From positions 301-52,830 of the forward strand of contig CAZBJI010000014.1 in NCBI GenBank assembly GCA_964492175.1: DNA of 52,530 nucleotides, written 5' to 3'. A model generated the notes under the pieces. That model was given only the letters and a program-made list of their open reading frames with translations. It ran no database searches and was not told the origin of the DNA. Below, piece after piece: positions 23,558 to 31,923 of this stretch. The stretch is from an uncultured Polyangiaceae bacterium (GTDB lineage Bacteria > Myxococcota_A > Polyangia > Polyangiales > Polyangiaceae). Every line of letters starts with the position of its first letter. Position 1 is the stretch's first letter. The translations under genes were made by a program, and so were the position numbers.

Positions 23558-24784
23558 TCACGGTCGCGGCGGGAGGTGCGCGACCTGCTTCGCCGGGTCG
23601 GCGTCGACCTCGGCGAGCGCTTCGCGCAGCTCCTCGTCCGTGGCCGCCTCTGCGGCGGCCCTCTGGATCGCGACCCGAAGCCGAGGCTCCGCGACGGACG
23701 CCGCGATCACGCGAAGCCGGTCGCGGTCGGCGGCGTCGGCGCGGGAGGAGAGCGACACCGCTGCGCCCGCGCGGGCCGCCGCCGGCGCCGAGGGGTCCGA
23801 AGCGATCCGCCATAGGCGCTCGAGCGGGACGTGCGCCGTCCGCAGGCCGGCGTCCGCGCCGGCCGCGAGCCTGCGCAGAGCGATCAGCCACTCCTCCGCC
23901 GTGCGCTCGCCGCGGGCGAGCGCCTCCGTCGCGTTCGAGCCGGTCCCGGCGTCGTACTCGTCGTAGGCCTGGACGATGCGACTGAACGTGAGGCTGGTGT
24001 CGTCGACGGCCCCGTCGCTCACGGGGATGCTCCTCGTGCCCCCGGCTCGGAGGACGAGGTCGGCGAACTGGGTCTTTCCGTCGGCCGCGAGGCGCACCGC
24101 CGCGACCTCGGAGAAGTGGGTGAACTGCGACATCCACAGCCAACGAAAGTGGACCCCGTCGACGCCCACGCGGATCCGGCTCGGGATCGCGCTGGCCGCG
24201 AAGTACGCCGCGAACCCGAGGAACAGGGCGAGCAGGCGCGCCCCGCCCGTCGGGTCGATCCCCCCGACGAGGAACCAAGTGCCCAGCGCGGCCGCCACGA
24301 TGACGCGCCGGATCCCGGGCGGGACGACGTGAAACCCGGAAGCGCCAGGCAGATCCGCCGTCGTCTGCGTGACGTCGAGCCCGAGCGCGACGAGGAGCTT
24401 CCGGCCCTCGTGCTCGTCCCACACCGCCAGATCGACCGGGCGTCGTGGCCAGCGACGGTTGAGGCGCACGACGCACGCGTCCCCGACGCGTGAGGAGAGG
24501 CCGTGCGTCACGTCCGCTCGGCGGACGACGACTCGGCCGTTGCGGGTGAGCGCCTCTGCGGTCGCCTCGTACAGACCGTACTCGAAGCCGGGCCATCGGC
24601 GACGCAGGGCGAGCGTGAACAGCGCGAAGGACAACATGCCGAGCACCGTCCAGAGCGCGCTCAACACGCCGGTCAGCCCGACCACGACGGCCAAGAGCGC
24701 CGTGGCCGTCGCCAGGCCGAGCAGGAGCCGGTTCGGTCGAACCAGCGCGGCGCGTCGGCTGCGGAACTCCGGCGTCAAGGCGAC
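23558..24784 (-). CDS. hypothetical membrane protein, last gene of the vgrG/PAAR-like operon (candidate T6SS cargo/effector or immunity protein)
   Basis: This is the real C-terminal ~405 aa of track ORF 23558..25117. A TTG start at 24784..24782 overlaps the PAAR-like gene's TGA as TTGA. The product MTPEFRSRRAALVRPNRLLLGLATATALLAVVVGLTGVLSALWTVLGMLSFALFTLAL has an N-terminal TM hairpin and a second TM pair near residue 150. The C-terminal half is soluble and Ala/Arg-rich. Confidence 0.5.
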   Translation of the reverse strand, partial: VALTPEFRSRRAALVRPNRLLLGLATATALLAVVVGLTGVLSALWTVLGMLSFALFTLALRRRWPGFEYGLYEATAEALTRNGRVVVRRADVTHGLSSRVGDACVVRLNRRWPRRPVDLAVWDEHEGRKLLVALGLDVTQTTADLPGASGFHVVPPGIRRVIVAAALGTWFLVGGIDPTGGARLLALFLGFAAYFAASAIPSRIRVGVDGVHFRWLWMSQFTHFSEVAAVRLAADGKTQFADLVLRAGGTRSIPVSDGAVDDTSLTFSRIVQAYDEYDAGTGSNATEALARGERTAEEWLIALRRLAAGADAGLRTAHVPLERLWRIASDPSAPAAARAGAAVSLSSRADAADRDRLRVIAASVAEPRLRVAIQRAAAEAATDEELREALAEVDADPAKQVAHLPPRP

Positions 24785-25167
24785 AGGACGATGACCTGAA
24801 CCTGGCTGGGCACGATGCGCATCCCCGGGCAGTTGGTGTTGTTCTGGATCGCCATGCTGGTCATCCGGGTCTGCGGCGCGCCGCCCACGAGGACCGTGAA
24901 CGCAGCGGTGACGTGGCGCCGCGGGCCCATGACCATGCCTGAGGCGACGCCGAGCGCCACGCCCGGGCAGTCCCCGAGGCTCATCACGCCGGTCGAGAAC
25001 ATGTTGTGAGCCGGCGCGCACATCATGAGGCAGTGGTAGGCGGCGGGGACGGTCATCGGCCCCATCTGGATGTTGGGGTACGGGATGGGCACGGGCACGG
25101 GCGTGGGCGTCAGGCACACGTCCGGGAAGCCGAGATCCATCCCCATCATCTGCGTGTTGGCGAACAT
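24775..25167 (-). CDS. PAAR-like (DUF4150) T6SS spike-tip protein, stand-alone
   Basis: 130 aa. The N-terminus MFANTQMMGMDLGFPDVCLTPTPVPVPIPYPNI and the downstream GDCPGVALGVASGMVMGP...FTVLVGGAPQTRMTS match the DUF4150 PAAR-like fold. There is no C-terminal toxin extension. Confidence 0.75.
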   Translation of the reverse strand: MFANTQMMGMDLGFPDVCLTPTPVPVPIPYPNIQMGPMTVPAAYHCLMMCAPAHNMFSTGVMSLGDCPGVALGVASGMVMGPRRHVTAAFTVLVGGAPQTRMTSMAIQNNTNCPGMRIVPSQVQVIVLSP

Positions 25168-25181
25168 TGGTCCTCCTCCGC

Positions 25182-29558: not shown

Positions 29559-29574
29559 GGCGAGCCTTGGGCCG

Positions 29575-31923
29575 TCAGATGATCTTCATGCCCTGGAGGA
29601 TGTTCACGGCCTTGCCGGCCATCCACAGGACGCCCGTCTCGAGCTTCGCTTGCACCGACTGGGCCTTGAGCGGGTATTGGTCCGCGTAGATGGCGCCGAT
29701 GTCGAGCTGGACCGAGGCGTGGAGGCCGATCTTCACGCCGATGAAGCTCTCCAGCTTGAACACCTGGTTCAGCTCGATGTGCGCGCCCATGACCCCCTCG
29801 AACTTGAGGCCGATGCAGTACCCGGTGTCCCAGTGCTTGAGGCTGCTCTCGCCACCGTTCGATTGCTGCACCTGCCCCGACACGTTCACGGTGACGTTGG
29901 AGGTCACGTTCTGCGTGATGTTGGCCTGGACGATCTGCGTGTAGTTCTGCGAGACGTTCACGGTGACGTTGCCGACGACCACGTCGTTGCGGTTCCCCGT
30001 GACGTTCAGCGTGCGGTTGCCCGTCACGTCGATCTGCTGGTTCCCGCCGACCTCCAGCTTGTAGTCGGTCCCGACCTTCGTCGACTGCTTCTGGCCGATG
30101 CTCACCGTCTCGTTGTCGGAGATGGTGACCTTGTGCTCCTTGTCGACCTCCTCGTGGAGGTTCTGCACCGTGGTCTTCTGCGCCTTGTACGTCTCGGTGA
30201 CCTGGTCGAGGACGTCCTCCTTCTTGGTGCTCTCGAAGCGCTCCTCGACGTACTTCTGGATGGTCTCCTTCTTGTAGCCGCAGACCAGCGTGTCCCAGTG
30301 CTCCCCCACCTCCGCGTCCCAGAAGCCGTGGATGCGGAAGTCGGTGTTCCGGCCCGAGAACCAGAGGCCGCGATCGTCGGTCTTCAGGATCATCTCGTGG
30401 TCGTCGTTGGGGGCGCCCATCCGGATGTAGGTGTTCGAGTACGGCGTGGACAGCGTGACGCGCTGCTGCCCGGAGAGGTCCTCCAGCTCGAAGCGGTTGC
30501 GGCCGCCGGTCTGGATCACGTTCTTCGTGTGGTTGCCGCTGGTGACGGGGCTGGGCGTGACCGCGTTCGGGATCGCGCCTGCGATCACCGGCCGGTCCGG
30601 ATCCCCGCCGAGGTAGAGGAAGACCACCTCCGTGCCCTTGCGGAGGGGGAAGTGCCAGCCTTCCACGGCGCCCGCGTGGGGCTGCATCATCCGGACGAAG
30701 GTGGACGCCTTGCCGTCCTTGAGCGTCCCCTCGTCGAACTTGAACTTCACGTTGTACCGTCCCAAGTCGTCGATCTGCGCGTACTCGCTGGTCGCCGGGC
30801 CGTCGACCACGCCGTTCTCGTAGCCGTCCACCCGCGGCCACGGCGTGCGGCACGGGTGGCGGTACTGGAGATCCGCGGAGATGCCCGAGACCTCCACCCG
30901 ATAGACGTCGTCGTGCGTGTGAGGCACCACGTTGCCCCAGGCCCCGGCGACCTCCGCGACGAAGCCGAAGTGCTCGATGGCCGTCGCGAGGTACTCCTTG
31001 TTGAGCGCCGAGCGCGGGTGCTCCGAGAGGAGGAACCTGAAGCCGGACGAGAGCCGCGCCGCGGCGCCCTCCGCGTGGCAGGTCGCCCCCTGGGCGCGGA
31101 GCTCCTCGGCGCGCAGCGTGGCCATGCGCGCCCCGTCCGCGGGAGAGAAGAAGCGCACGCCGTAGTCCCGGACCTCCCCGAACCCGTTCGGAGATACGTT
31201 CGCCGACCCCGAGACGTCGAGCGCCGGCTTCGCGTAGTCGTAATCCATGAGCTTGATCTTGGCCGGCAAGCTCGTCGTCTTCACCGTGAAGAGGTCGAAG
31301 TGCGCCCCGGCGCTCTGATCTTTGCCCGTCGTGGGGTGGTAGGGGATCGCCGCCTTCGGCGAGGCCTGGTGGGCCGACAGGTGGTCGGCGATGACGAGCT
31401 TCTCGCCGTCCTCGGTCTGCTCGAAGAAGTAGTACATCCCCTCGCGCTCCATCCACCGCTGGATGAAGTCGAGGGAGCTCTCCTTGTACTGGCAGATGTG
31501 CTCCTCGGTGTCGTAGGAGGCGTTGAGCCGGAGCTCGTAGTCCGCGATGCCCTCGTCCTCCAGGATGGCCTCGATGACCTCGGGCGCCGTCTTCTTCGTG
31601 AAGATGCGGCTGTGCTTCGTGAGCGAGAGCTGCCAGAGCTGGGGGACGATGCGCGCCTTGTAGAGCGTGTTGCCCTCGACGGCGCGGAGCACCTCGAACG
31701 ACGAGAGGATCCCCGCGAAGCTCGAGACCGGCAGCCCGCCGTCCTCGAGCACGAGGGTGGCCTTCGATCCCACGGCGTCCTCGGGCTCCACGTCCGTGTC
31801 CCCGAGCACGTTCACGTAGACGTCGAACACGTAGGGGCGCGAGATCCCCTCGCTGCCTCGGAAGCCCGCCACCGTCGCGTTGGCCGGCAGCGCGCCGGAC
31901 CGCACCGAGAACTTGAGCGCCAT
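29575..31923 (-). CDS. vgrG: type VI secretion system spike protein VgrG
   Basis: 782 aa. The N-terminal gp27-like region includes the conserved motifs GISRPYVFDVYV and IFTKKTAPEVIEAILEDEGI. The middle is a gp5-like OB/beta-helix region with NVTVNVSQNYTQIVQANITQNVTSNVTVNV repeats. There are no T6SS core genes (tssB/C, hcp, clpV) in the window, so this is an orphan vgrG island. Confidence 0.85.
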   Translation of the reverse strand: MALKFSVRSGALPANATVAGFRGSEGISRPYVFDVYVNVLGDTDVEPEDAVGSKATLVLEDGGLPVSSFAGILSSFEVLRAVEGNTLYKARIVPQLWQLSLTKHSRIFTKKTAPEVIEAILEDEGIADYELRLNASYDTEEHICQYKESSLDFIQRWMEREGMYYFFEQTEDGEKLVIADHLSAHQASPKAAIPYHPTTGKDQSAGAHFDLFTVKTTSLPAKIKLMDYDYAKPALDVSGSANVSPNGFGEVRDYGVRFFSPADGARMATLRAEELRAQGATCHAEGAAARLSSGFRFLLSEHPRSALNKEYLATAIEHFGFVAEVAGAWGNVVPHTHDDVYRVEVSGISADLQYRHPCRTPWPRVDGYENGVVDGPATSEYAQIDDLGRYNVKFKFDEGTLKDGKASTFVRMMQPHAGAVEGWHFPLRKGTEVVFLYLGGDPDRPVIAGAIPNAVTPSPVTSGNHTKNVIQTGGRNRFELEDLSGQQRVTLSTPYSNTYIRMGAPNDDHEMILKTDDRGLWFSGRNTDFRIHGFWDAEVGEHWDTLVCGYKKETIQKYVEERFESTKKEDVLDQVTETYKAQKTTVQNLHEEVDKEHKVTISDNETVSIGQKQSTKVGTDYKLEVGGNQQIDVTGNRTLNVTGNRNDVVVGNVTVNVSQNYTQIVQANITQNVTSNVTVNVSGQVQQSNGGESSLKHWDTGYCIGLKFEGVMGAHIELNQVFKLESFIGVKIGLHASVQLDIGAIYADQYPLKAQSVQAKLETGVLWMAGKAVNILQGMKII

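Follow-up and report, generated by a model that had tools for sequence, protein, structure and literature searches.

What does a type VI secretion system (T6SS) spike operon deliver when no toxin can be recognised among its products? The question is raised by a locus of an uncultured Polyangiaceae bacterium (GCA_964492175.1, contig CAZBJI010000014.1), from which we analysed a stretch of 52,530 nt of the forward strand, called the window in the following. Its minus strand carries, at 23558-31923, six co-directional genes that begin with vgrG and end with a gene for a membrane protein, here g6. An earlier note on this DNA had taken the missing toxin as a sign of non-canonical cargo, for which it named two large pentapeptide-repeat proteins and the terminal membrane protein as candidates. 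This lead has to be corrected, because a missing toxin and big pentapeptide proteins are the defining features of a published spike-assembly system and not the marks of an exotic cargo. The first five genes (vgrG, tvpAB, tvpB, tvpC and paar) very probably constitute an orphan Class III Tvp cassette (DUF2169 "synteny type C"), a reading to which we assign a probability of about 0.85, because their domain content and order match those described by Monlezun, Earl & Coulthurst (EMBO J 2026, PMC13373197) exactly. The locus is therefore a fairly ordinary further member of an already described cassette type, and two uncharacterised genes, g6 and the small neighbouring w161, provide further leads.

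Gene content and class of the cassette

The six genes are all real, and their coordinates are those first given. The high G+C content of the window (~70%) gives rise to many spurious open reading frames (ORFs), from which the real genes were told apart by their G+C content at the codon positions: in-frame third-position values (GC3) were 0.83-0.97 across the six ORFs as first listed, and at least 0.91 in each of the six genes after two over-long ORFs had been trimmed to the adopted coding starts. According to the coordinates, neighbouring genes from vgrG to g6 are separated by gaps of 16, 16 and 14 nt at the first, third and fourth junctions and overlap by 4 nt at the second and fifth, which bears out the earlier description of six genes that overlap or stand no more than 16 nt apart. 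A convergent plus-strand gene stops at 23553, and g6 is therefore the last gene of the operon. When 23000-32600 was scanned for promoters and terminators, nothing resembled a promoter, and a single terminator-like site came up, within vgrG on its non-coding (+) strand, which is fewer than expected by chance.

In Serratia marcescens Db10 the Class III Tvp system comprises VgrG1, TvpAB (DUF2169 joined to pentapeptide repeats), TvpB (pentapeptide repeats), TvpC (DUF3540) and Paar1, a stand-alone DUF4150 protein (PMC13373197). VgrG1-dependent killing requires all four accessory genes, as does the secretion of Hcp in the absence of VgrG2. Pull-downs show two mutually exclusive complexes, a TvpC-TvpAB-TvpB-Paar1 pre-complex that comes before a complex of VgrG1, TvpAB, TvpB and Paar1; TvpC is predicted to mimic VgrG by means of an OB-fold plus beta-prism, and TvpAB and TvpB co-purify with VgrG1, secretion of either having never been detected (PMC13373197). 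Paar1, or TagD, is naturally devoid of a toxin domain (PMC13373197, PMC13584744). For VgrG1, a membrane-targeting toxicity and a membrane-anchored immunity protein, Vai1 (DUF3192, with a single transmembrane segment and facing the periplasm), have been shown; its final 26 residues are hydrophobic, and VgrG1 itself was proposed to be the toxic element. Three Tvp classes are named in the same study, which also reports DUF2169 proteins in Myxococcota (PMC13373197).

At the head of the window cassette stands a VgrG (TssI) of 782 aa (29575-31923, on the minus strand like the genes that follow), which matches Phage_GPD (1.6e-75), Phage_base_V, Gp5_trimer_C and TIGR03361 (1.4e-97; 327.5 bits against a cut-off of 186) and is a bona fide VgrG, as the earlier note had stated. 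It consists of a gp27/gp5 hub, an OB domain and a long C-terminal extension of beta-prism type: the solved VgrG1 4mtk is matched by residues 21-461 (E 1e-54) and the beta-helix of T4 gp5 by residues 560-691. Its length lies within the Class III range (~700-800 aa), the extended beta-prism being supported to residue 691 only. The C-terminal ~80 aa, which end in ...LQGMKII, are relatively hydrophobic compared with the rest of the extension; mean hydropathy reaches +0.70 in the last 26 aa and is negative over most of residues 481-705, and this hydrophobic C-terminus recalls the last 26 residues of Serratia VgrG1. A word-indexed search with the C-terminal 293 aa retrieved four weak matches.

The second gene, tvpAB (26895-29558), encodes 887 aa with an N-terminal DUF2169 domain (aa 20-301, 2.5e-80), a helical middle part and a fused C-terminal pentapeptide-repeat domain (approximately aa 567-866; Pentapeptide, 6.5e-56), and its product is by homology the predicted chaperone of the PAAR-like tip (PMC13373197, PMC11883445). 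A separate tvpB (25849-26898, 349 aa; Pentapeptide, 4.2e-53) follows directly; it encodes pentapeptide repeats throughout, it starts with GTG in a 4-nt overlap with the stop of tvpAB, GC3 rises from ~0.4 to 1.0 at this start, and the protein is the predicted 'seat-belt' of the Tvp complex. The fourth gene, tvpC (25182-25832, 216 aa), had been listed as hypothetical; the gene is real, but it does have a family, DUF3540 (PF12059, 1.2e-61), of which it covers profile positions 1-199 of 199. For DUF6484, the alternative type, the window has no more than a sub-threshold match, within the OB domain of VgrG. TvpC is predicted to form a trimer in which an OB-fold and a short beta-prism mimic VgrG, and which would template the pre-complex; the model of its monomer contains a confident OB-fold matching phage and pyocin central spikes, and a profile search of PDB with TvpC found no meaningful match. 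The fifth gene, paar (24775-25167), encodes a stand-alone DUF4150 protein of 130 aa, along which Tox-PAAR-like (1.6e-34) spans aa 9-115; its PIPY motif starts at residue 27 and no toxin extension is present. Profile searches thus agree with the earlier note on DUF2169, on DUF4150 and on the lack of a fused toxin, and they agree as well on the operon as a whole: no toxin family (nuclease, lipase or other) in Pfam or NCBIfam was matched by any of the six proteins.

Compared with Serratia, the window has the same components in the same relative order, a VgrG of similar length (782 aa here, 786 aa there) whose C-terminus is hydrophobic in both, and likewise no classical toxin domain. It differs in being an orphan, whereas the Serratia cassette lies at the edge of a T6SS core cluster; in lacking Vai1 (DUF3192) as well as an SMDB11_2246-like gene between vgrG and tvpAB, where only 16 nt are left; in the added 3' membrane-protein gene g6; and in its host, a high-GC member of the Polyangiales. 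The same arrangement has been described as DUF2169 "synteny type C", in which DUF4150 domains have their hydrophobic PIPY surface chaperoned by DUF2169 (Sachar et al., J Biol Chem 2025, PMC11883445), and as the tagAB/tagB/tagC/tagD genes of Burkholderia T6SS-3/4/5, which are needed for sheath assembly and Hcp secretion (review PMC13584744; B. glumae study PMC8747328). In these, too, a multidomain protein of DUF2169 and pentapeptide repeats is followed by a pentapeptide-repeat protein, DUF3540 and DUF4150, and the PAAR-like protein (TagD), which lacks an effector domain, has a P(I/V)P(Y/F) motif.

The earlier note had likened the locus to Agrobacterium Tde2/Atu3641. This analogy is imprecise: in Class I Tvp (Agrobacterium tumefaciens VgrG2 - Atu3641/Tap2 - Tde2) a VgrG is likewise combined with a DUF2169 chaperone that shields a DUF4150 tip, but the subclass is the wrong one: Class I has a single-domain DUF2169 protein, lacks the pentapeptide domain, TvpB and the TvpC pre-complex, and carries a DUF4150 fused to a toxin (the DUF4150-nuclease Tde2) with a cognate immunity gene. 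We rejected Class I membership because the DUF2169 of the window is fused to pentapeptide repeats and stands two genes apart from a DUF4150 without any extension. Class II, exemplified by the Pseudomonas aeruginosa vgrG1b cluster (PA0095-PA0099), shares a pre-complex with a VgrG mimic and a DUF2169 chaperone for a PIPY-type PAAR; it differs in its short DUF6484 TvpC-like protein and its thiolase-like TvpD (PRK06147), in place of which the window has DUF3540 and pentapeptide proteins, and in a PAAR (Tse7) that carries a GHH2 nuclease.

A search of plasmids with the DUF3540 protein of the window (tblastn) provided a proteobacterial comparator, an annotated cassette on Enterobacter cloacae plasmid pIMI-6. 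Its order is tssH, vgrG (761 aa), a hypothetical gene for a 129-aa protein with a single transmembrane segment, DUF2169 (846 aa), pentapeptide (353 aa), DUF3540 (201 aa) and, as the last gene, DUF4150 (130 aa). All five cassette proteins of the window align with their counterparts, four of them over nearly the whole length. Identity is highest for PAAR (60% across 130 of 130 aa) and is 32% for TvpAB (residues 1-884, E 3e-134), 33% for TvpB (over 345 aa, E 5e-55), 33% for TvpC (E 7e-26), where a C-terminal ...D(G/S)E(N/Q)IHMG is common to both, and 27% for VgrG (aa 21-656).

Related cassettes in other genomes

A profile built from DUF3540 homologues identified 80 related loci in species-representative genomes, mainly of Polyangiales (Polyangium, Sorangium, Minicystis, Byssovorax and metagenome-assembled genomes, MAGs) and a few with proteobacterial labels. 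A comparison of synteny with other myxobacterial vgrG islands had been suggested in the earlier note: the order vgrG, tvpAB, tvpB, tvpC, paar is kept in nearly all loci that are long enough to show it. PAAR is a stand-alone protein of 120-161 aa in every locus with a callable gene (68/68), the pentapeptide pair is invariant across ~75 cassettes, and the median VgrG is 792 aa long (n = 65). The spacer between vgrG and tvpAB is mostly shorter than 100 nt, so that most of the related loci have no room for a Vai1-like gene. An effector-free PAAR of 130 aa and two large pentapeptide proteins are hence the norm of Class III, and a 'non-canonical cargo' is unnecessary to explain them.

The proteins of the cassette have diverged to very different extents. 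PAAR is by far the most conserved, with 63-94% identity, while VgrG, TvpAB, TvpB and TvpC are 36-60% identical; in the closest cassettes (L009, L010, L011, L012 and L036) PAAR reaches 86-94% and the other four proteins only 43-60%. The high conservation of PAAR fits a protein that is buried on every side in both complexes. These five cassettes and the window form a subgroup in which the extreme C-terminus of VgrG reads ...G(M/L/I)K(I/L)I.

Downstream of PAAR the loci are variable: the next gene is convergent in 31 of the 68 and co-directional in the other 37. Genes of the latter kind are a mixed set, which includes a second DUF2169 gene (~750 aa), Ser/Thr kinases, of which one has a macro domain, pentapeptide, ankyrin and DUF6484 proteins and another vgrG; no classical T6SS toxin is among the families listed in this position. 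In L012 and L036, the closest relatives with readable 3' ends (PAAR 89-94% identical), the operon stops at PAAR. A second gene with DUF2169 flanks many of the Polyangiales cassettes, either downstream of PAAR (L022, L025, L029, L031, L033, L076) or upstream of vgrG (L013, L016-L021, L044, L046, L057, L060). The products of five clustered downstream examples have 639-754 aa (DUF2169 5.8e-62 in L025), and the C-terminal part had no Pfam match in the one example scanned.

In Polyangiales, one genome can contain two or three paralogous Class III cassettes or more, in some cases within 30-40 kb of one another on a single contig. Such sets occur in P. fumosum (L009/L033/L061), Polyangium sp. 6x1 (L010/L031), Sorangium (L013/L052 and L020/L074) and Minicystis (L046/L060), and further ones are L053/L062/L069 and L047/L066/L086. 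The abundance of the cassettes in this order, in multiple copies per genome, suggests that large-genome myxobacteria may keep many interchangeable spikes. The cassettes consistently lack recognisable effectors, and the effector question for the whole Polyangiales clade is therefore the one that is partly posed by Serratia as well; this consistent absence supports the notion of a long VgrG-PAAR spike that could be toxic by itself.

The sixth gene, the spike and its possible cargo

The last gene of the operon, g6 (23558-24778, 406 aa), has no match in Pfam or NCBIfam. Its model comprises two repeats of a transmembrane hairpin plus PH-like domain, followed by a C-terminal helical domain, and g6 is predicted to be an inner-membrane protein with its soluble parts facing the cytoplasm. 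The TTG start overlaps the paar stop (ccTTGAcg) and agrees with the N-termini of orthologues, MSxxF(R/K)S; g6 is probably co-transcribed with the cassette. A look-up of the exact sequence gave no record. We found 21 homologues among 5.8 billion proteins, and all those with a source name come from Polyangiaceae or deltaproteobacterial MAGs. No homologue is present in any of the 80 related loci, and the genomic contexts of orthologues are devoid of T6SS genes in five of five cases. The three closest orthologues (L001, L006 and L007; 45-49% identical, all in Polyangiaceae MAGs) share a block with NAD kinase, NUDIX and VanY on one side and a molybdopterin oxidoreductase on the other, the latter preceded by a 208-aa gene in L006 and L007. 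The window copy of g6 has left this conserved block and is now joined to the paar stop codon; the sole trace of the orthologues' neighbourhood is a weak paralogue of the oxidoreductase, 20 kb from the cassette. An insertion of the cassette beside g6 at the conserved site was considered and rejected, because NAD kinase, NUDIX, VanY, the 208-aa gene and the oxidoreductase do not flank the cassette in the window. Thus g6 is a lineage-specific addition that does not belong to the conserved set of the module.

Judged by homology with the Serratia system, the five preceding genes would together provide all that is needed to build one alternative VgrG-PAAR spike, for use by a T6SS whose genes lie elsewhere in the genome. 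A TvpC trimer would mimic the tip of VgrG and take up the hydrophobic PIPY-type PAAR. The DUF2169 domain of TvpAB would then cover the hydrophobic patch of PAAR, with the helical and pentapeptide parts wrapping the prism and TvpB closing as a seat-belt, until the long VgrG trimer displaces TvpC and the resulting VgrG3-PAAR-TvpAB-TvpB is loaded into the baseplate; the chaperones would stay behind when the spike is fired. Because they would be left behind in this way, we infer that the pentapeptide proteins are assembly factors and, together with the DUF3540 protein, act as chaperones of the spike and not as secreted cargo. No effector is recognisable in the operon. If the spike has a toxicity of its own, the most plausible seat of it would be VgrG, with its extension and hydrophobic C-terminus, as has been proposed for Serratia VgrG1; otherwise, the spike may do no more than allow Hcp-borne cargo to be fired.

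Several points weigh against the reading as an orphan Class III cassette. The mechanism, that is the complex, its order of assembly, the retention of the chaperones and the dependence on a T6SS, would be transferred wholly from Serratia, Burkholderia and Vibrio at 27-60% identity, Myxococcota contributing homology only. The model of TvpC is of too low confidence past residue ~130 to show the beta-prism, and an alignment of the TvpC profile with the OB/prism region of VgrG (hhalign) gave no signal. The 4-nt overlap of paar and g6 suggests that g6 is expressed with the module, to which it may have a functional link. The window itself gives no sign of a T6SS core in the source genome: Pfam scans of ~50 other ORFs of the window matched no core component and recovered metabolic, transport and signalling genes instead. 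Core genes are likewise almost missing from the flanks of the related loci, for which two Pfam censuses were made, one of co-directional genes within ~4 kb upstream of vgrG and one of co-directional runs downstream of PAAR. Upstream there are three TssG and four ClpB/ClpV-type ATPase matches, and the three ClpV-type ATPases that were individually identified belong to L034, L082 and L087, which are labelled Rhizobium, Proteobacteria and Variovorax, respectively; downstream there is one T6SS_FHA_C match, which is unlocated. Genes of ~870 aa upstream of some Polyangium cassettes were examined as further ClpV candidates and dropped, having no Pfam match. An orphan auxiliary spike module, as the earlier note had also concluded, is nevertheless the best reading, and the core T6SS that it would serve would have to lie elsewhere in the source genome, beyond the 52.5 kb of the window.

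Could the cassettes of Polyangiales instead serve another contractile-injection or COMMD-associated apparatus? The near absence of core genes from the scanned flanks, with all three identified ClpV-type ATPases outside Polyangiales loci, is what this would predict, yet VgrG passes the curated TssI model widely (327 bits against 186) and the cassette is collinear with others that are embedded in T6SS clusters. Moreover, orphan vgrG islands are common in bacteria that possess a T6SS. T6SS genes have also been reported in Polyangiales (PMC10196010), and we consider a different apparatus extremely unlikely. It is hardly more credible that the pentapeptide proteins are themselves a non-canonical cargo, loaded through DUF2169 and DUF4150 and injected, e.g. 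as DNA mimics like Qnr and MfpA or in the manner of the type III secretion effectors PipB and PipB2. Such a role could be sought in an operon without a toxin domain, the more so as other secretion systems do export pentapeptide proteins as effectors, and NCBIfam does return PipB2, PipB, Qnr and HetL. All of these matches are sub-threshold (PipB2 with 144 bits against a cut-off of 354) and reflect the repeat signal only, for which reason a functional assignment to PipB2, Qnr or HetL was discarded. One of the two pentapeptide domains is covalently joined to the DUF2169 chaperone, the invariance of the pair in ~75 cassettes is the pattern of machinery and not of polymorphic cargo, and the Serratia counterparts, besides never appearing in the secretome, are essential for firing (PMC13373197). 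What had been proposed as cargo is thus better explained as Class III chaperones.

The terminal membrane protein, the other cargo candidate of the earlier note, fares no better. The slot after PAAR is variable and, with a heterogeneous co-directional gene in 37 of 68 loci, resembles a cargo slot, and g6 overlaps the stop codon of paar. However, g6 does not show the features expected of a cargo effector: a toxin domain is missing, as is an adjacent immunity gene (the convergent gene follows after 4 nt), Pfam recognised no Eag/DUF1795-type chaperone for its transmembrane hairpins, and its linkage is not conserved, g6 being absent from all 80 related loci while its orthologues stand alone in contexts without T6SS. 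Its PH-like and helical architecture looks regulatory or scaffolding rather than toxic, and we regard a cargo role as highly improbable. Less remote, but still unlikely, is that g6 confers immunity, as a functional analogue of Vai1, against a membrane-depolarising VgrG-PAAR spike, so that the real unit would have six genes. In favour of this are the translational coupling to paar through the 4-nt overlap, the inner-membrane nature of g6, and the long extension and hydrophobic C-terminus that VgrG has in common with Serratia VgrG1, for which membrane toxicity comes with an anchored immunity protein; furthermore, the 16-nt gap after vgrG holds no Vai1-like gene, and no ORF scanned in the window matched DUF3192, whereas pIMI-6 has its 129-aa single-transmembrane gene in that position. 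On the other hand, cassettes without g6 include those with an 86-94% identical PAAR, and such sister cassettes would lack immunity; three of the five orthologue contexts share a housekeeping-type block; the soluble domains of g6 are predicted to be cytoplasmic, in contrast to the periplasm-facing Vai1; and there is no likeness of sequence or domain to DUF3192. Similarly doubtful is the wider proposal in which the toxin-less VgrG-PAAR spike is the weapon, either membrane-depolarising or by means of a cryptic C-terminal peptide, as is suspected for Serratia VgrG1, with g6 as a new membrane-embedded immunity or docking factor in this Polyangiales lineage and w161 as a further accessory.

The gene w161 and other neighbours

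The small gene w161 (23068-23553, plus strand) encodes an uncharacterised protein of 161 aa and converges with g6 in the window, the two stop codons lying 4 nt apart. Homologues (BLAST and hidden Markov model searches) stand directly 3' of PAAR in six related cassettes: L036 (10974-11456, 57% identical), L012 (11223-11717), L046 (10948-11433), L049 (11038-11484), L053 (10985-11446) and L069 (11001-11468). Their orientation is convergent in two cassettes, L012 and L036, and in the other four they follow in the same direction after 2-10 nt. Since a w161 homologue follows PAAR in the closest relatives, g6 appears in the window as wedged between paar and w161. It is possible that w161 is an accessory partner of Class III cassettes, its membership of the module being tentative. 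Both g6 and w161, situated at the variable 3' end, are concrete candidates for function.

Searches with w161 gave no match in Pfam and no sequence match in PDB, either with the single sequence or with a profile. In a set of 1.84 billion proteins the family (~155 aa) has 60 representative clusters. Roughly 19 of these representatives are longer (258-637 aa), with the w161 match on the N-terminal ~150 residues; in the twelve that were inspected (among P0082-P0125) it is followed by proline-rich repeats with a recurring 'GPALPF' ("ALPF") motif, in some by a short pentapeptide block, and in 10 of 12 a conserved C-terminal helical domain ('LTLEQYA...') is present. To our knowledge, this architecture of w161, proline-rich repeats and helical domain has no known match. 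The gene could be the COMMD-like gene that is reported near such cassettes, in a study that also predicts for P. fumosum a hetero-hexamer corresponding to the Tvp pre-complex (COMMD paper, PMC13392464). Sequence searches of PDB for COMMD-like or Eag-like relatives of w161, of the 189-aa and 353-aa neighbours and of the downstream gene of L009 found no match.

Three other genes of the window deserve mention. A Ser/Thr protein kinase (43112-44692, plus strand; Pkinase, 3.3e-42) has homologues in the flanks of 13 related cassette loci, and a Ser/Thr kinase is among the recurrent neighbours in the COMMD paper (PMC13392464); as kinases are abundant in myxobacteria, this recurrence may have no further meaning. 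Another gene (19528-22062, plus strand), ~1.5 kb away from the 3' end of the cassette, encodes a protein of 844 aa that matches MVP_shoulder (5e-25), Vault_3 (1.6e-7) and Band_7/SPFH and seems to be a bacterial homologue of the major vault protein of eukaryotes. Enzymes of the ERG4/ERG24 sterol type are known from some myxobacteria, and the window encodes a full-length member of the ERG4/ERG24 sterol reductase family (46948-48306, plus strand; 5e-127), an enzyme of a eukaryote-like sterol pathway.

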